Assembly: GCF_003334315.1 (NCBI RefSeq)
Contig: NZ_QOWR01000022.1
Source: Escherichia coli
Lineage (GTDB): Bacteria > Pseudomonadota > Gammaproteobacteria > Enterobacterales > Enterobacteriaceae
Reading direction: 5' to 3' (one strand)
Length of the DNA stretch: 64,000 nucleotides
Of this stretch, positions 6,567-64,000 are shown piece after piece (the stretch's first letter is position 1; each line of letters starts with the position of its first letter). Made by a program: the position numbers and the translations under genes. Under the pieces are notes generated by a model, which worked only from the letters and a program-made list of their open reading frames with translations, had not been told where the DNA came from and did no database searches.

Positions 6567-6720
6567 ACGTTGTTCTCTTAAGGTTAACCACCGGATTGAT
6601 GAGCGCGCACAGTACCACCTTTTTTGCACCAGCAAAAGTGCGAATACCACTTGCCCGAAAGGCCCGTCGCGAGTACTTTGTCGCGATATTTTTGACATTT
6701 TCGACTACAGGAATTTTTCG

Positions 6721-7293
6721 ATGCCAAGAGCGAACGAAATTAAAAAAGGTATGGTACTGAATTACAACGGCAAACTGCTGCTGGTTAAGGATATTGATAT
6801 TCAGTCGCCCACTGCCCGCGGTGCCGCTACGCTGTACAAAATGCGTTTTTCTGATGTCCGTACCGGGCTGAAAGTAGAAGAGCGTTTCAAAGGTGATGAT
6901 ATCGTTGACACCGTGACGCTGACCCGCCGTTACGTTGACTTCTCCTATGTCGATGGCAACGAATATGTCTTTATGGATAAAGAAGACTATACCCCGTATA
7001 CCTTCACCAAAGATCAGATTGAAGAAGAGTTGCTGTTTATGCCAGAGGGCGGCATGCCGGACATGCAGGTGCTGACCTGGGACGGTCAACTGCTGGCGCT
7101 TGAGCTGCCGCAGACCGTTGATCTGGAAATCGTTGAAACCGCACCAGGCATCAAAGGGGCATCTGCCAGCGCCCGTAACAAACCGGCGACATTGAGCACT
7201 GGTCTGGTGATTCAGGTACCAGAATACTTAAGCCCGGGCGAAAAAATTCGTATCCATATCGAAGAACGCCGTTATATGGGGCGTGCTGACTAA
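6721..7293 (+). CDS. yeiP: Elongation factor P-like protein (EfpL/YeiP)
   Basis: 190-aa product [43 protein letters not shown]..., an EF-P paralog fold; internal start chosen within the longer track ORF. Confidence 0.9.
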
Positions 7294-7515
7294 CTTCAGC
7301 CGCATGCAGAAAAGGGATAGCTCAGGCTGTCCCTTTTTTAATTTATTATACCAATCTTCTATTTTGCGCTTCCTGAACACCTTACGCCCTCAATTTTCAC
7401 TCGTTGATTGATCGCCCTCACACTTCATCGCATTAACAATCCAGACCAATTTCAATTGCTGTCATATAACTTTACACTGTCGTTGTTAATTAATCGTTAC
7501 TAAGACGTGACTCCT

Positions 7516-8982
7516 ATGAATACAATCGCCTCCGTTACGCTCCCGCATCATGTACACGCTCCACGCTATGATCGCCAGCAGTTGCAATCACGTATCGTTC
7601 ATTTTGGCTTTGGAGCCTTTCACCGCGCTCATCAGGCGTTACTGACCGATCGTGTGCTGAATGCCCAGGGCGGCGACTGGGGGATCTGTGAAATCAGCTT
7701 GTTCAGCGGTGATCAACTGATGAGCCAGCTCCGCGCACAGAACCATTTATATACCGTGCTGGAGAAAGGTGCGGACGGCAATCAGGTGATAATTGTCGGT
7801 GCCGTTCACGAATGCCTTAATGCAAAACTGGATTCCTTAGCGGCAATTATTGAGAAATTTTGCGAGCCACAGGTGGCAATTGTTTCCCTGACGATTACCG
7901 AAAAAGGCTATTGTATTGACCCGGCCACCGGTGCACTCGACACCAGTAATCCGCGGATTATTCACGATCTACAAACCCCTGAAGAACCTCACTCCGCACC
8001 GGGTATTCTCGTCGAAGCACTGAAACGCCGCCGTGAGCGCGGCCTTACACCGTTTACCGTGCTCTCCTGCGACAATATTCCCGACAATGGTCATGTGGTG
8101 AAAAACGCGGTGCTGGGAATGGCAGAAAAACGTTCGCCAGAACTCGCCGGGTGGATAAAAGAGCACGTCAGTTTTCCGGGAACCATGGTCGACCGCATTG
8201 TTCCGGCTGCAACCGACGAATCACTGGTGGAAATCAGCCAGCATCTGGGGGTGAATGATCCCTGCGCGATTAGCTGCGAACCGTTTATCCAGTGGGTGGT
8301 GGAAGATAACTTCGTCGCTGGGCGTCCTGCCTGGGAAGTCGCAGGTGTACAAATGGTGAATGATGTCCTGCCATGGGAAGAGATGAAACTGCGGATGCTT
8401 AATGGCAGCCACTCTTTTCTCGCTTATCTGGGTTACCTCTCAGGATTCGCCCATATCAGTGATTGCATGCAGGATCGCGCATTTCGCCATGCCGCCAGAA
8501 CATTAATGCTGGATGAGCAAGCGCCGACACTGCAAATTAAAGATGTCGATTTAACACAATATGCGGATAAGTTAATTGCACGTTTTGCTAATCCGGCGCT
8601 GAAACATAAGACCTGGCAAATCGCGATGGATGGCAGCCAGAAATTACCGCAACGCATGCTGGCAGGTATTCGCATACATCAGGGGCGCGAAACGGACTGG
8701 TCGTTGCTGGCATTAGGCGTTGCAGGCTGGATGCGTTACGTCAGCGGCGTTGATGATGCCGGAAATGCCATTGATGTTCGCGATCCGCTTAGCGATAAAA
8801 TTCGCGAACTTGTTGCGGGCAGCAGCAGTGAACAACGCGTAACCGCCCTGCTTTCCCTGCGTGAAGTTTTCGGTGATGATCTGCCAGATAACCCGCATTT
8901 TGTGCAGGCCATCGAACAAGCCTGGCAACAAATCGTACAATTCGGCGCACATCAGGCGCTATTAAACACCCTCAAAATTTAA
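7516..8982 (+). CDS. yeiQ: Mannitol-dehydrogenase-family oxidoreductase YeiQ
   Basis: About 488 aa; alternative start at 7507 gives 491 aa. Confidence 0.85.
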   Translation: MNTIASVTLPHHVHAPRYDRQQLQSRIVHFGFGAFHRAHQALLTDRVLNAQGGDWGICEISLFSGDQLMSQLRAQNHLYTVLEKGADGNQVIIVGAVHECLNAKLDSLAAIIEKFCEPQVAIVSLTITEKGYCIDPATGALDTSNPRIIHDLQTPEEPHSAPGILVEALKRRRERGLTPFTVLSCDNIPDNGHVVKNAVLGMAEKRSPELAGWIKEHVSFPGTMVDRIVPAATDESLVEISQHLGVNDPCAISCEPFIQWVVEDNFVAGRPAWEVAGVQMVNDVLPWEEMKLRMLNGSHSFLAYLGYLSGFAHISDCMQDRAFRHAARTLMLDEQAPTLQIKDVDLTQYADKLIARFANPALKHKTWQIAMDGSQKLPQRMLAGIRIHQGRETDWSLLALGVAGWMRYVSGVDDAGNAIDVRDPLSDKIRELVAGSSSEQRVTALLSLREVFGDDLPDNPHFVQAIEQAWQQIVQFGAHQALLNTLKI

Positions 8983-9099
8983 CGATTTCTGCGGTTAAAG
9001 CGGATGAAGCTCACCTTCGTCCGCTCTCCCCTTCTCTTTTCTGCCTTTTTTAGCCAGGATTAACGCTCAGTTAACTTACCAGAGTATTGCGGAGCCGTT

Positions 9100-10086
9100 G
9101 TGACCAGGACCAACCTCATCACCGGTTTTCTCGGCAGCGGGAAAACCACGTCGATTCTTCATCTGTTAGCCCATAAAGATCCCAACGAAAAATGGGCGGT
9201 ACTGGTTAATGAATTTGGGGAAGTCGGAATTGATGGTGCTTTGCTCGCCGATAGCGGCGCATTGCTGAAAGAGATCCCCGGCGGCTGCATGTGCTGCGTT
9301 AATGGTTTACCCATGCAGGTAGGGTTGAATACCTTACTGCGTCAGGGAAAACCAGACCGCTTGTTGATAGAGCCGACCGGGCTGGGCCATCCGAAACAGA
9401 TCCTCGATCTGTTAACCGCACCAGTCTATGAACCGTGGATAGATCTGCGCGCCACCTTGTGCATTCTCGATCCGCGCTTGCTGCTGGACGAAAAAAGCGC
9501 CAGCAATGAAAACTTCCGTGACCAGCTGGCTGCCGCAGACATCATTGTCGCCAATAAATCCGACCGTACGACGCCCGAAAGTGAGCAAGCGCTACAGCGT
9601 TGGTGGCAGCAAAATGGTGGCGATCGACAATTAATTCACAGTGAGCATGGGAAAGTTGACGGTCATCTTCTGGATTTGCCGCGTCGCAATTTAGCCGAGT
9701 TGCCCGCCAGCGCCGCGCATTCTCATCAGCATGTCGTGAAAAAAGGGTTAGCAGCGTTAAGCCTGCCAGAGCATCAACGCTGGCGTCGCAGTCTGAACAG
9801 CGGGCAAGGATATCAGGCCTGCGGCTGGATATTCGACGCTGATACGGTATTCGACACCATTGGCATTCTGGAATGGGCGCGACTTGCACCGGTGGAACGC
9901 GTCAAAGGCGTGCTGCGTATTCCCGAAGGGCTGGTGCGAATCAACCGTCAGGGCGATGACCTGCACATTGAAACGCAAAACGTTGCGCCACCGGACAGCC
10001 GTATTGAGCTGATTTCCAGCAGCGAAGCTGACTGGAATGCCTTGCAGAGCGCGCTGTTGAAGCTTCGTTTAGCGACTACCGCGTAA
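9100..10086 (+). CDS. yeiR: Zinc-binding GTPase YeiR (CobW/COG0523 family)
   Basis: 328-aa ORF with P-loop GFLGSGKTT, a GCMCC motif and a His-rich stretch; GTG start. Confidence 0.9.
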   Translation: MTRTNLITGFLGSGKTTSILHLLAHKDPNEKWAVLVNEFGEVGIDGALLADSGALLKEIPGGCMCCVNGLPMQVGLNTLLRQGKPDRLLIEPTGLGHPKQILDLLTAPVYEPWIDLRATLCILDPRLLLDEKSASNENFRDQLAAADIIVANKSDRTTPESEQALQRWWQQNGGDRQLIHSEHGKVDGHLLDLPRRNLAELPASAAHSHQHVVKKGLAALSLPEHQRWRRSLNSGQGYQACGWIFDADTVFDTIGILEWARLAPVERVKGVLRIPEGLVRINRQGDDLHIETQNVAPPDSRIELISSSEADWNALQSALLKLRLATTA

Positions 10087-10124
10087 GGTTGCCTGCGTTT
10101 TTCAGTAAGATAATTAGAGAAAAT

Positions 10125-10838
10125 ATGATTAAAAATTTGCCGCAAATAGTGTTGTTGAATATTGTCGGCCTCGCGCTGTTTCTTTCCTGGTATATCCCCG
10201 TTAATCATGGATTCTGGTTGCCGATTGATGCGGATATTTTTTATTTCTTTAATCAGAAACTGGTCGAAAGTAAGGCCTTTTTGTGGCTGGTTGCATTGAC
10301 CAACAATCGCGCCTTCGACGGTTGTTCACTGCTGGCGATGGGTATGTTGATGCTGAGTTTCTGGCTGAAAGAAAACGCCCCTGGCAGACGACGTATCGTG
10401 ATTATTGGTCTGGTCATGCTATTAACTGCAGTGGTATTAAACCAGCTGGGTCAGGCATTAATTCCTGTAAAACGGGCCAGCCCAACATTGACTTTTACCG
10501 ATATTAACCGCGTCAGCGAACTGCTCTCTGTTCCCACGAAAGATGCCTCACGAGATAGCTTTCCCGGCGATCACGGCATGATGCTGCTTATTTTTTCGGC
10601 ATTCATGTGGCGTTATTTCGGCAAAGTTGCAGGCCTTATCGCCCTTATTATTTTTGTGGTTTTTGCATTTCCCAGAGTAATGATTGGCGCACACTGGTTT
10701 ACTGACATCATTGTCGGTTCGATGACCGTGATATTGATCGGTTTGCCCTGGGTGTTGCTGACGCCATTAAGTGATCGATTAATCACCTTTTTTGACAAAT
10801 CACTACCAGGAAAAAACAAACATTTCCAAAACAAATAA
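10125..10838 (+). CDS. lpxT: Lipid A 1-diphosphate synthase (undecaprenyl-pyrophosphate phosphotransferase)
   Basis: 237-aa PAP2-family membrane protein starting MIKNLPQIVLLNIVGL... Confidence 0.85.
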   Translation: MIKNLPQIVLLNIVGLALFLSWYIPVNHGFWLPIDADIFYFFNQKLVESKAFLWLVALTNNRAFDGCSLLAMGMLMLSFWLKENAPGRRRIVIIGLVMLLTAVVLNQLGQALIPVKRASPTLTFTDINRVSELLSVPTKDASRDSFPGDHGMMLLIFSAFMWRYFGKVAGLIALIIFVVFAFPRVMIGAHWFTDIIVGSMTVILIGLPWVLLTPLSDRLITFFDKSLPGKNKHFQNK

Positions 10839-44470: not shown

Positions 44471-44948
44471 GTGAAGTGCGGCACCCCGTAGGTCAGACAA
44501 GGCGGTCACGCCGCATCCGACATCCAACGCCCGAGTCGGTTGCCTGATGCGACGCTGGCGCGTCTTATCAGGCCTACACCGCTGTGAAGTGCTCCACCCC
44601 GTAGGTCGGATAAGGCGGTTACGCCGCATCCGACATCTAACGCCCAAGCCGGTTGCCTGATGCGACGCTGGCGCGTCTTATCAGGCCTACACCGCTGTGA
44701 AGTGCTCCACCCCGTAGGTCGGATAAGGCGGTTACGCCGCATCCGACATCTAACGCCCAAGCCGGTTGCCTGATGCGACGCTGGCGCGTCTTATCAGGCC
44801 TACACCGCTGTGAAGTGCTCCACCCCGTAGATTGGATAAGGCGGTTACGCCGCATCCGACATCTAACGCCCGAGCCGGTTGCCTGATAAGACGCTGGCGC
44901 GTCTTATCAGCATACGCCACATCCCCGGCATACCATGCCGGATGTGGC
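44471..44948. repeat. Tandem BIME/REP array: about 4 copies of a 113-bp unit, each carrying REP palindromes
   Basis: Units begin at about 44471, 44584, 44697 and 44810; each contains ccgcatccgacatc and gcctgatgcgacgctggcgcgtcttatcaggcctacaccgct. Confidence 0.85.
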
Positions 44949-52810: not shown

Positions 52811-52957
52811 AACTTTTTAAGATTATTGCGGAATGGCGAAATAAGCACCTAACATCAAGCAATAATAATTCAAGGTTAAAATCAATAACTTATTCTTAAG
52901 TATTTGACAGCACTGAATGTCAAAACAAAACCTTCACTCGCAACTAGAATAACTCCC

Positions 52958-53050
52958 GCTATCATCATTAACTTTATTTATTACCGTCATTCATTTCTGA
53001 ATGTCTGTTTACCCCTATTTCAACCGGATGCCTCGCATTCGGTTTTTTTT
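52958..53050 (+). ncRNA. micF: MicF small antisense RNA (regulator of ompF mRNA)
   Basis: GCTATCATCATTAACTTTATTTATTACCGTCATTCATTTCTGAATGTCTGTTTACCCCTATTTCAACCGGATGCCTCGCATTCGGTTTTTTTT matches micF as recalled; it ends in its own intrinsic terminator and lies divergent from ompC. Confidence 0.9.
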
Positions 53051-56704: not shown

Positions 56705-56900
<196 letters not shown>

Positions 56901-59750
56901 CTACGAATCCCGCGATTTCCTGACCCTCTCGGCATATAACGTCAGCGTCTGTTTTATCACATCCAGCATTACCGGCTTCGACAGGCAGCTGTCCATACCG
57001 GACTCCAGACACCGCTGCTTCTCTTCAGCCAACGCATTAGCAGTTACTCCGATTACCGGCAACGTCAGTCCCAACTGACGAATGCGTTGCGTCAAGCGGT
57101 AACCATCCATATTTGGCATGTTGACGTCGCTAAGCACGATATCAATATGATTCTTGCTAAGTACATTAAGCGCATCGACGCCATCATTCGCGGTTTTACA
57201 TTGATAGCCCAACGATCCCAACTGATCTGCCAGCAAACGCCGGTTAATCGGATGATCATCCACGACAAGAATCATCATATCGTCATTATCGCTGACCGCT
57301 TTGTCCGTTGACGGCAGAGCGTTAGCAGGATCGTCGCTCTCCATCTCGATCAAATAAATACGCGCCAACAATGCCGGTAGCTCATGCGGAGCAGCCACAC
57401 TGTGTACCCACTCCCCTGGCGCTTTCTCCAGCGGAATACCAATATGGCGACGACAGAAGGTCACTACCGCTCTGCCCTGCCATTTTTTACTCACTACCTC
57501 GTCAGTGATCAACACATCTTCGGGAGTCGGTTCCTGCCCTTCGTATGTTGTAACGACGATGCCGCTGCGCTGCAAACTGGTTTCCAGGAACTGACAGAGC
57601 GACGCATTGCGGACCGCCAGCCAGCAGCGTTTACCACTCAACCCTTCCACGCCTTTTTTCTGCGGGTACTGAGCGCCGTACAACGGAATACGCACGGTAA
57701 ACTGGCTGCCCATTCCCGGTTCTGAATCTACCGAGATATCGCCGTCCATCATGCTGATCAGTTTTTCACAAATCGCCAGACCCAGACCGGTCCCCTGGAA
57801 ATTACGCTGTACGCCCGTTCCGACCTGGAAGAAGGGATCAAACAAGCGCACCACTTCTTTCGCCGGTATCCCCACGCCGGTATCGCGAACACGGATAGAG
57901 AGATAATCGCCATCCGCGCGAACATGCAAAACTATACAGCCGGTATCGGTGAATTTTATGGCGTTACTCAACAGGTTGGAGATGACCTGCTGTAAACGCA
58001 TCGGGTCGCCATTTAAGGCCACTGGCACATCCGGTTCAATAAAGCAGTACAAGCCTAACTGCTTGCGTACCACCAGCGGTAAATAGTTGGCGGTGATGTG
58101 GTTCATCACTTCACGCGGTGAAAACTCACGCGGTTCGATCTTCAACTGTTCCGATTCAATCTTCGAGAAATCGAGAATATCGCTGATAATTTTCAACAAC
58201 AGGCTGGAAGAGTTGTTCATTGCCGTCACCAGCCGATCGACGCCTTTCGGTAACTCTTTGGTTTGCAACAGATCCAGGTTACCGATAATGCCATACAGCG
58301 GCGTTCGCAGCTCATGACTGACGGTGGCAAGGAACATCGATTTTGACTGGCTCGCCTGTTCCGCTGCTTGTGCCATCTCCTGCAACGACTCTTCCATCTT
58401 CACGCGCGAAGAAACATCCACCAGCACACAAATGGCCACGTTTTCATTACGATAGCGCGAATGGACGAAGCTGATTTGCAGATTGGTATTGTTGCTGGTC
58501 AGGACATCAACAAAATTGACCTGCTGCCCACAGATAATTTGCGTCAGTCGTTGGCGGTCCTCATGCGTAAGCATATTGAGATAGGTATGCGCCAGTTCGT
58601 TACTTAAAATATTGACGCCATCAGCGGTACGCAAAATGCAGATACCCACTGGCGCGGAGGCGACAATCTTGCGATTGAACTGCTCATGTTCTTCCAGTCG
58701 CAGGGCGTCGCTTTCCGCCGGAATGAAAATACGTCGCTCGTACATCCGTGCGAGAGTAAACAATGCAGCTCCGGCAAGCACATTCAGCAAAATTGCGTTA
58801 AGGATCAACATGCGAATGCGTTCCAGCACCTTATCAACCGGCACCGAATACACGATGCTTAGCGATGAGGGTGGCAGATTTTTCTTCAGCACCAGCTCCC
58901 GGAACCCTTCCGTATAGCCAAACCAGGAGCGTTCCTGCATCCAGCGAGGATCGCCCTTAATTTTACTTTCTGGTCCGGTAAGCGAAATCAGGGTATGACC
59001 ATTTTCATCAAGAATGGTAACCCCCATCGGCAACGTACCCGGTAAGAAAAAGTTTTCCATCCGGATGGTCTGCTCGACACCCAAAAGCGCCTGCAACCGG
59101 TTCGCCAGATAAACTGGCGTCAACGCGTAAAAATACCCGACGCCAGGGCGCGGACCTTCGCTGATCCAGTAGAGGTTACTGCCGCTATCATCTTGTGGTG
59201 CATTTCGATATTTATTGATGCGTTCATGCAAAGCTTTCAACGCGGTATCGCGTTCCACTGGCATATCACGCAGACCGAAATTGGCCATGCAGAGGTTATC
59301 ACTGCCGATTAAAAATACCCGGTTGAGATCGTAAGCCGCAGAAAAATTATCGCGCCAGTAGCGCATAAACCACGCCAATGACTCCAGAGAACCTCGCCAG
59401 GTGTTACTCATCGCGGAACAATCGGAGTCGGCAAACAGCGGTTCAAACGCAGGCACATCCGCCTGCGTTTCTCGTCCACGCGGGGAAAGCACACCGTTCT
59501 CTGCCGATAAGCGATTTTCGGCGATGTACTTCAGCTCTTTCATCACATCAGAGGTGCGTTGAATAAAGCGCTGAGCCTGATCGGAACTCAGATTAAATTC
59601 CTGACGAATTTCCGATTCTCGCTGATGTAACGCATTAACGATGTAAAAAACGGATGAAAAAGCAATCAACAGCCAGAGCACTAACGCCAATGCTCTGAAC
59701 ATGTAGCGCGAGGCTTTCAGGGTTGTACGAAAAGAAGCAAGGTATTTCAA
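56901..59750 (-). CDS. rcsC: Rcs hybrid sensor histidine kinase RcsC
   Basis: 949-aa ORF with TM/periplasmic domain, HisKA (H-box SHELRTP), HATPase and C-terminal receiver domain. Confidence 0.95.
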   Translation of the reverse strand: MKYLASFRTTLKASRYMFRALALVLWLLIAFSSVFYIVNALHQRESEIRQEFNLSSDQAQRFIQRTSDVMKELKYIAENRLSAENGVLSPRGRETQADVPAFEPLFADSDCSAMSNTWRGSLESLAWFMRYWRDNFSAAYDLNRVFLIGSDNLCMANFGLRDMPVERDTALKALHERINKYRNAPQDDSGSNLYWISEGPRPGVGYFYALTPVYLANRLQALLGVEQTIRMENFFLPGTLPMGVTILDENGHTLISLTGPESKIKGDPRWMQERSWFGYTEGFRELVLKKNLPPSSLSIVYSVPVDKVLERIRMLILNAILLNVLAGAALFTLARMYERRIFIPAESDALRLEEHEQFNRKIVASAPVGICILRTADGVNILSNELAHTYLNMLTHEDRQRLTQIICGQQVNFVDVLTSNNTNLQISFVHSRYRNENVAICVLVDVSSRVKMEESLQEMAQAAEQASQSKSMFLATVSHELRTPLYGIIGNLDLLQTKELPKGVDRLVTAMNNSSSLLLKIISDILDFSKIESEQLKIEPREFSPREVMNHITANYLPLVVRKQLGLYCFIEPDVPVALNGDPMRLQQVISNLLSNAIKFTDTGCIVLHVRADGDYLSIRVRDTGVGIPAKEVVRLFDPFFQVGTGVQRNFQGTGLGLAICEKLISMMDGDISVDSEPGMGSQFTVRIPLYGAQYPQKKGVEGLSGKRCWLAVRNASLCQFLETSLQRSGIVVTTYEGQEPTPEDVLITDEVVSKKWQGRAVVTFCRRHIGIPLEKAPGEWVHSVAAPHELPALLARIYLIEMESDDPANALPSTDKAVSDNDDMMILVVDDHPINRRLLADQLGSLGYQCKTANDGVDALNVLSKNHIDIVLSDVNMPNMDGYRLTQRIRQLGLTLPVIGVTANALAEEKQRCLESGMDSCLSKPVMLDVIKQTLTLYAERVRKSRDS

Positions 59751-59916
59751 AGGGGCGAAGCTCCGCCTCAGGTGACCGATGGAGTGTGGTTAAGGTAGCG
59801 GTAAAAGCGTGTTACCGCAATGTTCTCTCTTCTCTGGAATATGATACACCGCCGAGAAATCATCACCTTAACCTCTGATAATCGTCATATACCGGACAAG
59901 ACTAGTGGATTTCAGC

Positions 59917-61743
59917 ATGCATTATATGAAGTGGATTTATCCACGCCGCTTACGCAATCAAATGATCCTGATGGCAATCCTGATGGTCATTGTCCCAACG
60001 CTTACTATTGGTTATATCGTAGAAACGGAAGGACGTTCAGCAGTCTTATCTGAAAAAGAGAAAAAACTTTCTGCCGTGGTCAACCTGCTTAATCAGGCGC
60101 TAGGCAATCGCTACGATCTCTACATCGACTTACCGCGTGAGGAGCGTATCCGCGCATTAAATGCAGAACTTGCCCCCATTACCGAAAATATCACTCACGC
60201 CTTCCCTGGCATCGGCGCTGGTTATTACAACAAAACGCTGGATGCGATAATCACCTACGCGCCTTCAGCGCTATATCAGAATAATGTCGGCGTTACCATT
60301 GCCGCAGATCACCCTGGTCGCGAAGTCATGCGTACAAATACCCCTTTGGTTTATTCAGGCAGGCAGGTGCGCGGCGATATTTTGAATTCAATGATCCCCA
60401 TTGAGCGTAATGGTGAAATCCTCGGCTATATCTGGGCCAATGAATTAACCGAAGATATTCGCCGCCAGGCCTGGAAAATGGATGTGAGGATTATCATTGT
60501 GCTCACCGCCGGTTTGCTGATAAGCCTGCTGTTGATTGTCCTTTTCTCCCGTCGCCTGAGCGCCAATATTGATATCATCACCGATGGCCTCTCGACTCTG
60601 GCACAAAATATTCCCACTCGATTACCACAATTGCCCGGTGAAATGGGGCAAATCAGTCAGAGTGTTAATAACCTCGCCCAGGCACTGCGTGAAACGCGGA
60701 CACTTAACGATCTGATTATTGAAAACGCTGCCGATGGCGTCATTGCCATTGACCGCCAGGGTGATGTAACCACCATGAACCCGGCAGCAGAAGTTATCAC
60801 TGGCTATCAACGCCATGAACTGGTAGGGCAGCCTTACTCCATGTTGTTCGACAATACTCAGTTCTACAGTCCAGTACTGGATACGCTGGAACATGGCACC
60901 GAACATGTGGCGCTGGAGATCAGTTTTCCAGGTCGTGACCGCACCATTGAACTCAGTGTCACTACCAGTCGTATTCATAACACGCACGGTGAAATGATAG
61001 GTGCTTTGGTGATTTTCTCTGATTTAACTGCCCGCAAAGAAACCCAGCGCCGCATGGCGCAAGCAGAACGCCTCGCCACACTGGGTGAGCTGATGGCTGG
61101 CGTCGCGCATGAAGTACGTAATCCGTTAACGGCTATTCGTGGTTATGTACAGATCTTGCGCCAACAAACCAGTGACCCAATACATCAGGAATATCTGTCC
61201 GTAGTACTCAAAGAAATCGATTCAATTAACAAAGTTATTCAGCAATTGCTCGAATTTTCACGTCCACGCCACAGTCAATGGCAACAAGTCAGCCTCAATG
61301 CATTGGTTGAAGAAACTCTGGTACTGGTACAAACCGCCGGCGTACAAGCGCGGGTCGACTTCATAAGCGAACTGGATAATGAATTAAGCCCGATTAACGC
61401 CGATCGTGAACTGCTCAAACAGGTACTACTGAATATCCTGATCAATGCCGTCCAGGCTATCAGCGCACGAGGGAAAATTCGCATTCAAACCTGGCAATAC
61501 AGCGACTCACAACAGGCCATTTCGATAGAGGACAACGGCTATGGCATTGATCTCTCGCTGCAAAAAAAGATCTTCGATCCCTTTTTCACCACCAAAGCCT
61601 CAGGAACCGGGCTTGGTCTGGCGTTAAGTCAACGCATCATTAATGCCCATCAGGGTGATATTCGCGTCGCCAGTTTGCCGGGCTACGGCGCAACCTTCAC
61701 GCTTATTTTACCGATCAACCCGCAGGGAAATCAGACTGTATGA
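59917..61743 (+). CDS. atoS: Sensor histidine kinase AtoS
   Basis: 608-aa product starting MHYMKWIYPRRLRN...; HAMP, PAS and HisKA (AHEVRNPL) domains. Confidence 0.93.
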   Translation: MHYMKWIYPRRLRNQMILMAILMVIVPTLTIGYIVETEGRSAVLSEKEKKLSAVVNLLNQALGNRYDLYIDLPREERIRALNAELAPITENITHAFPGIGAGYYNKTLDAIITYAPSALYQNNVGVTIAADHPGREVMRTNTPLVYSGRQVRGDILNSMIPIERNGEILGYIWANELTEDIRRQAWKMDVRIIIVLTAGLLISLLLIVLFSRRLSANIDIITDGLSTLAQNIPTRLPQLPGEMGQISQSVNNLAQALRETRTLNDLIIENAADGVIAIDRQGDVTTMNPAAEVITGYQRHELVGQPYSMLFDNTQFYSPVLDTLEHGTEHVALEISFPGRDRTIELSVTTSRIHNTHGEMIGALVIFSDLTARKETQRRMAQAERLATLGELMAGVAHEVRNPLTAIRGYVQILRQQTSDPIHQEYLSVVLKEIDSINKVIQQLLEFSRPRHSQWQQVSLNALVEETLVLVQTAGVQARVDFISELDNELSPINADRELLKQVLLNILINAVQAISARGKIRIQTWQYSDSQQAISIEDNGYGIDLSLQKKIFDPFFTTKASGTGLGLALSQRIINAHQGDIRVASLPGYGATFTLILPINPQGNQTV

Positions 61744-63125
61744 CTGCTATTAATCGCATCCTTATTGTGGATGATGAAGATAATGTTCGCCGTATGCTGA
61801 GCACCGCTTTTGCACTACAAGGATTCGAAACACATTGTGCGAACAACGGACGCACAGCATTACACCTGTTTGCCGATATTCACCCTGATGTGGTGTTGAT
61901 GGATATCCGCATGCCAGAGATGGACGGCATCAAGGCACTAAAGGAGATGCGCAGCCATGAGACCCGGACACCCGTTATTCTGATGACGGCCTATGCGGAA
62001 GTGGAAACCGCCGTCGAAGCGCTACGCTGCGGAGCCTTCGACTATGTTATTAAACCGTTTGATCTCGATGAGTTGAATTTAATCGTTCAGCGCGCTTTAC
62101 AACTCCAGTCAATGAAAAAAGAGATCCGTCATCTGCACCAGGCACTGAGCACCAGCTGGCAATGGGGGCACATTCTCACCAACAGCCCGGCGATGATGGA
62201 CATCTGCAAAGACACCGCCAAAATTGCCCTTTCTCAGGCCAGCGTCTTGATTAGCGGTGAAAGCGGCACCGGGAAAGAGTTGATTGCCAGAGCGATTCAC
62301 TACAATTCGCGGCGGGTAAAGGGGCCGTTCATTAAAGTCAACTGCGCGGCGCTGCCGGAATCGTTGCTCGAAAGTGAACTGTTTGGTCATGAAAAAGGTG
62401 CATTTACTGGTGCACAAACCTTGCGTCAGGGATTATTTGAACGAGCCAACGAAGGTACTCTGCTCCTCGACGAAATTGGCGAAATGCCGCTGGTACTACA
62501 AGCCAAATTACTACGCATTCTACAGGAACGGGAATTTGAACGGATTGGCGGCCATCAGACCATAAAAGTTGATATCCGCATCATTGCTGCCACCAACCGC
62601 GACTTGCAGGCAATGGTAAAAGAAGGCACCTTCCGTGAAGATCTCTTTTATCGCCTTAACGTTATTCATTTAATACTGCCGCCTCTGCGCGATCGCCGGG
62701 AAGATATTTCCCTGTTAGCTAATCACTTTTTGCAAAAATTCAGTAGTGAGAATCAGCGCGATATTATCGACATCGATCCGATGGCAATGTCACTGCTTAC
62801 CGCCTGGTCATGGCCGGGAAATATTCGAGAGCTTTCCAACGTTATTGAACGCGCCGTCGTGATGAATTCAGGCCCGATCATTTTTTCTGAGGATCTTCCG
62901 CCACAGATTCGTCAGCCAGTCTGTAATGCTGGCGAGGTAAAAACAGCCCCTGTCGGTGAGCGTAATTTAAAAGAGGAAATTAAACGCGTCGAAAAACGCA
63001 TCATTATGGAAGTGCTGGAACAACAAGAAGGAAACCGAACCCGCACTGCTTTAATGCTGGGCATCAGTCGCCGTGCATTGATGTATAAACTCCAGGAATA
63101 CGGTATCGATCCGGCGGATGTATAA
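61740..63125 (+). CDS. atoC: Sigma-54-dependent response regulator AtoC (NtrC family)
   Basis: 461-aa ORF with receiver domain, AAA+ domain (GESGTGKE, GAFTGA) and C-terminal HTH. Confidence 0.95.
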   Translation: MTAINRILIVDDEDNVRRMLSTAFALQGFETHCANNGRTALHLFADIHPDVVLMDIRMPEMDGIKALKEMRSHETRTPVILMTAYAEVETAVEALRCGAFDYVIKPFDLDELNLIVQRALQLQSMKKEIRHLHQALSTSWQWGHILTNSPAMMDICKDTAKIALSQASVLISGESGTGKELIARAIHYNSRRVKGPFIKVNCAALPESLLESELFGHEKGAFTGAQTLRQGLFERANEGTLLLDEIGEMPLVLQAKLLRILQEREFERIGGHQTIKVDIRIIAATNRDLQAMVKEGTFREDLFYRLNVIHLILPPLRDRREDISLLANHFLQKFSSENQRDIIDIDPMAMSLLTAWSWPGNIRELSNVIERAVVMNSGPIIFSEDLPPQIRQPVCNAGEVKTAPVGERNLKEEIKRVEKRIIMEVLEQQEGNRTRTALMLGISRRALMYKLQEYGIDPADV

Positions 63126-63136
63126 CACCAAAACTT

Positions 63137-63177
63137 GCTATGCAGAAATTTGCACAGTGCGCAATTTTCTGCATAGC
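63137..63177. promoter_or_regulatory. AtoC upstream activator site (near-perfect 20-bp inverted repeat)
   Basis: GCTATGCAGAAATTTGCACA | GTGCGCAATTTTCTGCATAGC, upstream of the sigma-54 promoter. Confidence 0.7.
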
Positions 63178-63259
63178 CGCTCATTCTCCTTATAACCCCC
63201 CATCCAATTTATCCCTTCATATTCAATTAGTTAAATAACTAAATCCAATAATCTCATTC

Positions 63260-63275
63260 TGGCACTCCCCTTGCT
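63260..63275 (+). promoter_or_regulatory. Sigma-54 (-24/-12) promoter of atoDAEB
   Basis: TGGCAC-N5-TTGCT (tggcactccccttgct) about 45 bp upstream of the atoD start. Confidence 0.75.
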
Positions 63276-63320
63276 ATTGCCTGACTGTACCCACAACGGT
63301 GTATGCAAGAGGGATAAAAA

Positions 63321-63983
63321 ATGAAAACAAAATTGATGACATTACAAGACGCCACCGGCTTCTTTCGTGACGGCATGACCATCATGGTGGGCGGATTTAT
63401 GGGGATTGGCACTCCATCCCGCCTGGTTGAAGCATTACTGGAATCTGGTGTTCGCGACCTGACATTGATAGCCAATGATACCGCGTTTGTTGATACCGGC
63501 ATCGGTCCGCTCATCGTCAATGGTCGAGTCCGCAAAGTGATTGCTTCACATATCGGCACCAACCCGGAAACAGGTCGGCGCATGATATCTGGTGAGATGG
63601 ACGTCGTTCTGGTGCCGCAAGGTACGCTAATCGAGCAAATTCGCTGTGGTGGAGCTGGACTTGGTGGTTTTCTCACCCCAACGGGTGTCGGCACCGTCGT
63701 AGAGGAAGGCAAACAGACACTGACACTCGACGGTAAAACCTGGCTGCTCGAACGCCCACTGCGCGCCGACCTGGCGCTAATTCGCGCTCATCGTTGCGAC
63801 ACACTTGGCAACCTGACCTATCAACTTAGCGCCCGCAACTTTAACCCCCTGATAGCCCTTGCAGCTGATATCACGCTGGTAGAGCCAGATGAACTGGTCG
63901 AAACCGGCGAGCTGCAACCTGACCATATTGTCACCCCTGGTGCCGTTATCGACCACATCATCGTTTCACAGGAGAGCAAATAA
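63321..63983 (+). CDS. atoD: Acetate CoA-transferase subunit alpha
   Basis: 220-aa [35 protein letters not shown]... Confidence 0.95.
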
Positions 63984-64000
63984 TGGATGCGAAACAACGT
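63984..64000 (+). CDS. atoA: Acetate CoA-transferase subunit beta, first 5 codons only (runs off the window)
   Basis: ATGGATGCGAAACAACGT immediately after the atoD stop; expected by synteny. Confidence 0.6.

Follow-up and report, generated by a model that had tools for sequence, protein, structure and literature searches.

The DNA analysed here (the window) is a 64,000 nt stretch of an Escherichia coli genome, and its last part carries atoS, atoC, atoD and the beginning of atoA. The annotated gene order in E. coli K-12 MG1655 is rcsC, then atoS-atoC, then atoD-atoA-atoE-atoB, with atoA beginning at the final base of atoD. The genes and regulatory features of this part of the window are listed below, numbered from its first base.

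59917–61743, + strand: atoS, sensor histidine kinase, 608 aa (K-12 identity, NCBIfam NF008468).
61740–63125, + strand: atoC, sigma-54-dependent response regulator (bEBP), 461 aa (NCBIfam NF008469, Pfam).
63137–63156, + strand: left arm of the AtoC enhancer, GCTATGCAGAAATTTGCACA (repeat finder; identical to the verified site of Pilalis 2011).
63151–63163, no strand assigned: invariant enhancer core TGCACA-G-TGCGCA, consensus TGCRCA-N-TGYGCA (cross-genus alignment).
63158–63177, − strand: right arm of the AtoC enhancer, GCTATGCAGAAAATTGCGCA on the minus strand and TGCGCAATTTTCTGCATAGC on the plus strand (repeat finder; identical to the verified site of Pilalis 2011).
63221–63233, + strand: candidate IHF bending site ATTCAATTAGTTA, predicted from a match with one mismatch (12/13) to WATCAANNNNTTR.
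63259–63275, + strand: sigma-54 promoter CTGGCACTCCCCTTGCT, with the −24 GG at 63261–63262 and the −12 GC at 63273–63274 (motif match; ChIP-seq site OS21).
63286, + strand: predicted transcription start, placed approximately 12 nt past the −12 GC, for a leader of 35 nt (sigma-54 promoter geometry).
63309–63313, + strand: Shine-Dalgarno sequence GAGGG, 7 nt before the atoD ATG (direct read; retained in Serratia and Morganella).
63321–63983, + strand: atoD, acetate CoA-transferase subunit alpha, 220 aa, first gene of atoDAEB (NCBIfam NF007394).
63983–64000, + strand: start of atoA, its ATG overlapping the atoD stop codon as TAATG; the window ends inside this gene (sequence and K-12 annotation).

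The spacer between the atoC stop codon (63123–63125) and the atoD ATG (63321) is 195 bp long and differs from that of K-12 MG1655 only at 63196–63197, where CC is found in place of AT, within a stretch that is also variable among other E. coli lineages. The CC creates a run of six C residues. The palindrome, the −24/−12 element, the leader and atoD are base-for-base the same as in K-12 and lie at the same offsets from the ATG. Of 5,426 complete E. coli genomes, 3,926 have a match to a 501 bp segment around the element, and the genes at the matching positions are annotated as atoC and atoD everywhere.

Several other elements were recorded in the remainder of the window. Two strong palindromes, at 27397–27429 and 27567–27599, flank a tRNA-Pro(GGG) gene (27482–27558). 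The upstream one, CGCTAACTGATTAATTATAAATCAGTTAGCG, is AT-rich and has no T-run, and the downstream one, AAAAAAAACCAACCATTACGGTTGGTTTTTTT, is a canonical terminator. Arrays of REP-type repeats (Rfam naRNA4) are found at 44491–44800 (three copies) and at 56711–56901, just downstream of rcsC (two copies). Rfam also identifies the MicF sRNA (52957–53050; 114 bits) and a ribosomal protein L25 leader (23741–23766), which are ordinary for this region.

AtoS, AtoC and AtoD are full length, and all three score above their NCBIfam equivalog cutoffs (AtoS, NF008468, 994.6 bits against a cutoff of 646; AtoC, NF008469, 1001.6 bits against 714; AtoD, NF007394). AtoD is identical to the K-12 protein over 220/220 residues, AtoC matches at 460/461 residues (A193V), and AtoS at 604/608 (D64N, M107T, L160I and C542Y). 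The Pfam domains of AtoC are Response_reg (7–115), Sigma54_activat (145–311; 6.7e-75), AAA_lid_14 and HTH_8 (415–454), and D55, the Walker A sequence GESGTGKE and the GAFTGA motif at 220–225 are all present. None of the five substitutions falls at D55, Walker A, GAFTGA or the HTH. A193V corresponds to window position 62317, and C542Y (window position 61541) occupies the variable x of the AtoS kinase motif DNGxGID. A bEBP of the GAFTGA AAA+ type is thus encoded immediately upstream of the sigma-54 promoter.

The palindrome in the atoC–atoD spacer consists of two 20-nt arms, GCTATGCAGAAATTTGCACA and TGCGCAATTTTCTGCATAGC, which are complementary at 18/20 positions (90%) around G63157 and together form a 41-bp element. 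In a scan of the 64-kb window for inverted repeats with 20-nt arms, at most two mismatches and a loop of 0–3 nt, it was the sole repeat of this quality, and no repeat of this grade was found in 30 dinucleotide-preserving shuffles; the estimated chance expectation is approximately 4e-4 per window. The core TGCRCA-N-TGYGCA likewise has a single match in the window, with 0.05 expected. The first-pass annotation had reported a near-perfect 41-bp inverted repeat at this position, and the repeat is real, with its coordinates and sequences exact.

The same element has been characterised in K-12. Table 5 of Pilalis 2011 [PMC3118216] lists two experimentally verified AtoC sites, GCTATGCAGAAATTTGCACA on the + strand at −184 to −165 and GCTATGCAGAAAATTGCGCA on the − strand at −163 to −144 from the atoD start. 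With the ATG at 63321, these offsets correspond exactly to 63137–63156 and 63158–63177 and the letters are identical, so that the published AtoC site lies in the same place and not elsewhere. The text of that study calls the arms identical, but its own Table 5 carries the same two differences that are seen here. For this 40-bp palindrome, as the authors describe it, verified DNA binding, acetoacetate-inducible ChIP and sigma-54 dependence were reported [PMC3118216].

A TGGCAC-N5-TTGC element, TGGCACTCCCCTTGC, is located at 63260–63274 on the + strand and is the single exact match in the window. Extended by one base (63260–63275, TGGCACTCCCCTTGCT), it agrees with TGGCAC-N5-TTGCW at 10/10 core positions and at the W, and the GG and GC are exactly 10 bp apart. 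By itself the motif is weak evidence: 0.28 matches to the −24/−12 core are expected per window by chance, and at least one was found in 26 of 100 shuffles. Allowing one mismatch in the core added no discrimination in the window, and an extended Barrios-type consensus, MRNRYTGGCACGRNNNTTGCWNNW, gave 4 matches at 3 mismatches with 3.97 expected. As this unweighted extended consensus is non-discriminating, the score from a published PSSM was used instead. The weight of the motif comes from its position, which is intergenic, on the correct strand and near atoD (47–61 nt upstream of the ATG), and from its conservation. A promoter scan detected no sigma-70-like promoter in 62900–63500.

In the ChIP-seq study of Bonocora 2015 [PMC4591121], the intergenic sigma-54 site OS21 (atoD) has the motif CTGGCACTCCCCTTGCT with a PSSM score of 9.39, its centre lies 54 bp before atoD, and it is marked as experimentally confirmed in EcoCyc. 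The canonical sigma-54 element that had been noted upstream of atoD is therefore OS21, and the published sigma-54 matrix does score the site. The entry for OS21 and atoD also gives a "distance 35" [PMC4591121], with which the predicted leader of 35 nt agrees. In addition, Shimada 2021 [PMC8743547] reported a gSELEX peak for the RpoN holoenzyme within the atoC–atoD spacer. Binding of the sigma-54 holoenzyme to the sequence described here follows from its identity to K-12 together with these ChIP-seq [PMC4591121] and gSELEX [PMC8743547] data.

The leader (63276–63320) is near-invariant within E. coli and is strongly retained in Serratia and Symbiopectobacterium (GTACCCAC..CGG.GTAT.CAA.AGGGA). 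This conservation exceeds what the Shine-Dalgarno sequence alone would need, and no obvious hairpin was found in the leader by eye.

The end of the palindrome and the TGGCAC are separated by 82 nt, slightly less than the figure of about 85 bp given in the first-pass annotation, and the centre-to-centre distance is 110 nt. The dyad (63157) precedes the T of TGGCAC by 103 bp and lies at approximately −129 from the predicted start, which places a dyad-symmetric site in the range of ~80–150 bp upstream of a −24/−12 element used to recognise bEBP enhancers. The abstract of Matta 2007 is said to place the AtoC site at −146 to −107 from a mapped start and to report that IHF is required; a start at ~63286 would put the palindrome within about 3 nt of that position. 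Among five divergent E. coli lineages, one base is variable in the palindrome and none in the promoter CTGGCACTCCCCTTGCT, with the variable positions clustering between them.

The candidate IHF site ATTCAATTAGTTA lies in this intervening DNA. IHF matches with one mismatch occur approximately once per 0.9 kb in the window and the probability of one within the spacer by chance is ~0.07, so the match is statistically weak. It aligns with a perfect consensus sequence, AATCAACTCGTTG, in Serratia. Literature searches on IHF at atoDAEB returned nothing usable.

For comparison across genera, loci were collected using the DNA encoding the AtoD peptide GGFMGIGTP as a query that is independent of the cis elements. 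Taking one genome per species, 38 loci were recovered, and tblastn was used to separate those in which atoC immediately precedes atoD from those in which it does not. The atoC-linked form was found in Escherichia, Serratia, two Symbiopectobacterium, two Morganella, Photorhabdus, a Holophagaceae MAG and a Firmicutes MAG, and the form in which atoC is not adjacent in Pasteurellaceae, Snodgrassella, Yersinia and others. A −24/−12 element is located 56–64 nt before the atoD ATG in all 10 intact atoC-linked loci from other taxa. No such promoter was found in the 26 atoD loci that have no adjacent atoC, with two exceptions: a weak 8/10 match at −54 in one Snodgrassella locus, and Photorhabdus bodei, where the promoter and enhancer core are retained though atoC is deleted.

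Sigma-54-like strings 150–204 nt upstream of atoD in loci that lack atoC (Snodgrassella, Yersinia and others) were rejected as promoters, since they lie inside a conserved upstream ORF. The recurring string, TGGCxCxxGAxATGCATGG, was seen in nine loci. The ORF that holds it is at least 105–146 aa long, may represent the C-terminal portion of a longer gene, and includes the peptide ...GGGVTRSLAxDMHGKGLS.... This coding string is a false-positive trap for motif scans.

In an alignment of the spacer from seven genera, the invariant columns fall almost entirely into two islands, the palindrome core (63149–63172) and the −24/−12 element (63260–63264 and 63271–63275). The core columns are invariant across Escherichia, Serratia, Symbiopectobacterium, Morganella and Photorhabdus, and TGCRCA-N(1-2)-TGYGCA is present in 10 of 10 Enterobacterales spacers examined. 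The recognition helix of AtoC, GISRRALMYKLQEY, is invariant across the same genera. The outer parts of the palindrome are more variable, with 17–19/20 positions complementary in Escherichia, 17/20 in Serratia/Symbiopectobacterium and 10–11/20 in Morganella and Photorhabdus. Judging from this alignment, the base-specific target of AtoC is probably the inner TGCRCA-N-TGYGCA core, which fits the invariant helix. Distances from the dyad to TGGCA fall into four groups (102–103, 116–118, 135–136 and 138.5 bp), and no helical phasing between enhancer and promoter was found across genera, as expected for an enhancer that acts by looping.

Decay of the regulatory genes was seen in two genera. In Photorhabdus, atoC is lost in steps while the neighbouring atoD stays intact. 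The atoC of P. cinerea lacks the receiver and has stop codons upstream of it, in P. heterorhabditis a fragment of atoC adjoins atoD, and in P. bodei atoC is gone from the locus, leaving an orphan enhancer core (TGCACACCTGTGCA, at −200) and promoter (TGGCATACCTATTGC, at −66). In Candidatus Symbiopectobacterium endolongispinus, atoS, atoC and atoD each appear in two tblastn segments beside an intact palindrome and sigma-54 promoter, and the three genes are likely to be frameshifted pseudogenes in a genome-reducing symbiont. Outside the Enterobacterales, the Holophagaceae MAG (Acidobacteriota; 6593–10634) has atoS-atoC-atoD synteny, with TGGCACCATTCCTGC located 64 nt ahead of atoD and, upstream, an inverted TGCGCAA-N25-TTGCGCA.

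Two other readings of the motifs were considered. The frequency of the −24/−12 core in shuffled windows (26%) would allow the promoter match to be a chance occurrence, but the palindrome never appeared in the 30 shuffles, both motifs persist across genera in an otherwise diverging spacer, and binding data are published for both [PMC3118216, PMC4591121]. The conservation, together with the published ChIP and binding data, refutes a reading of the two as chance matches lacking function, which retains only a negligible probability. The palindrome could also, or instead, form a hairpin in the RNA at the 3′-end of atoSC, serving as a terminator, insulator or stabiliser between constitutive atoSC and inducible atoDAEB. 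It begins 12 nt past the atoC stop codon and would therefore be transcribed, and its RNA fold has a predicted energy of −23 to −25 kcal/mol (z = −5.0). Between Escherichia and Serratia, 8 of the 20 arm pairs have changed on both sides and are still complementary, and across genera 77.5% of cells are paired compared with 26–57% in slid controls. However, after the AT-rich stem comes CGCTCATTCTCC, which has no T-run, and a terminator scan found nothing at 63137–63190; an intrinsic (rho-independent) terminator, which needs a GC-rich stem and a T-run, is thus rejected. In Morganella a separate canonical terminator hairpin with a T-run lies upstream of the AtoC site, and the outer arms are complementary at only 10/20 positions. 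Furthermore, the core is kept in sequence and not merely in pairing, symmetric changes would equally be expected in the binding site of a symmetric protein, and AtoC is known by experiment to bind the palindrome as DNA [PMC3118216]. The hairpin reading is accordingly unlikely, and a second role for the palindrome at the 3′-end of atoSC, though possible, is unsupported.

The symmetric drift of the outer arms is a minor unexplained point. Comparison of Escherichia (GCTATGCAGAAAT...) with Serratia/Symbiopectobacterium (TGAGAAGGAAT...) shows four positions in the outer arms at which both arms have changed together, while the recognition helix is identical. The long arms might have a second, structure-based role, either as an RNA hairpin that ends or insulates atoSC or as outer arms read by a surface of AtoC beyond the recognition helix, and this is considered improbable.

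Taking the palindrome and the −24/−12 element as AtoC enhancer and sigma-54 promoter, the atoC–atoD spacer is almost certainly the region through which atoDAEB, an operon for short-chain fatty acids, is placed under enhancer-dependent control. Activation of atoDAEB by AtoC had been proposed in the first-pass annotation and is supported, as both elements are the published K-12 sites and are the sole conserved islands in other genera; none of the observations speaks against it. AtoS would sense acetoacetate and phosphorylate AtoC, and phosphorylated AtoC would bind the 41-bp palindrome via its C-terminal Fis-type HTH and assemble into an AAA+ oligomer of presumed stoichiometry. Sigma-54 RNA polymerase would form a closed complex on TGGCAC-N5-TTGC (63260–63274), and the AT-rich DNA between enhancer and promoter would be looped, probably aided by a predicted IHF bend near 63221–63233. 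The GAFTGA loop of AtoC would then contact sigma-54, and ATP hydrolysis would open the promoter, with transcription expected from ~63286. In K-12, AtoC binds both 20-mers [PMC3118216] and sigma-54 binds the promoter motif [PMC4591121] in sequence identical to that described here. Activity in this strain is a prediction, as are the IHF site, the position of the transcription start and the stoichiometry of the oligomer.

Whether the module is active in this strain depends in part on genes beyond the window, which stops 18 nt into atoA; atoA, atoE, atoB, rpoN and ihfAB all lie outside. The suggestion that the module is probably functional stands insofar as the cis elements, atoS, atoC and atoD are intact, and over-reaches with respect to those other genes. 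An inactive module behind intact cis elements would require a defect in atoA, atoE, atoB, rpoN or ihf, or an effect of the substitutions in AtoS (D64N, M107T, L160I and C542Y) or AtoC (A193V), and in other E. coli the ato locus is missing or interrupted by IS elements. Over its final 7,101 nt (56900–64000), however, the window is 100% identical to E. coli RCAD0514, a strain with an intact annotated atoDAEB in which the same AtoS and AtoC alleles occur with RefSeq protein accessions. By inference from this identity, atoDAEB is likely to be intact here also. Most ato-positive complete genomes (3,899 of 3,932) hold at least 80% of atoS–atoB in one piece, and the substitutions spare D55, Walker A, GAFTGA and the HTH. 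An inactive module is therefore very unlikely.

Loss or disruption of the ato genes in some lineages, also mentioned in the first-pass annotation, was confirmed. The atoS–atoB region has no match in 1,494 of 5,426 complete E. coli genomes (~28%), and in strain 600055 an IS1-linked deletion extends from the 3′-end of atoC through atoDAEB and neighbouring genes to a fragment of a DUF2138 gene beside gyrA.

The locus is the same as the K-12 atoDAEB promoter region studied previously (Matta 2007, Pilalis 2011, Bonocora 2015), from which it differs only in two spacer bases, A193V in AtoC and the four AtoS substitutions. The palindrome and promoter finding is correct and was already known by experiment; the elements match the AtoC site and the sigma-54 promoter published for atoDAEB exactly, and the view of this as known biology holds.

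The arrangement resembles other bEBP systems. The archetype of activation by a bEBP, in which the DNA is looped and ATP is hydrolysed, is NtrC/glnAp2. Like AtoC, NtrC is a response-regulator bEBP with the same three-domain layout, and TIGR01818 (ntrC) is the second-best NCBIfam match for AtoC (475 bits, below its cutoff). In both systems TGCA-containing dyad sites are located more than 100 bp upstream of a −24/−12 promoter. They differ in that the signal for AtoC is acetoacetate via AtoS and that for NtrC is nitrogen via NtrB, and in that the atoD enhancer is one continuous 41-bp palindrome whereas NtrC has two separated 17-bp sites. In ZraR/zraP and PrpR/prpBCDE of E. coli, the regulator is encoded beside its target operon, as for AtoC. 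ZraS is the second-best NCBIfam match for AtoS and ZraR the fourth-best for AtoC; both are below the curated cutoffs, and AtoC therefore falls outside those equivalogs. The prpB promoter, GTGGCACACCCCTTGCT, is very similar to that of atoD, CTGGCACTCCCCTTGCT, but the atoD enhancer sequences and signals differ from those of both systems.

The AtoSC switch that responds to acetoacetate, and the promoter that it targets, are kept by this strain in the same form as in K-12, at a locus that has been lost from ~28% of complete E. coli genomes. The finding has little import beyond annotation. The comparison across genera adds a modest refinement in delimiting the conserved core of the enhancer, and the layout in the Holophagaceae MAG suggests that the regulatory arrangement may far predate the Enterobacterales.
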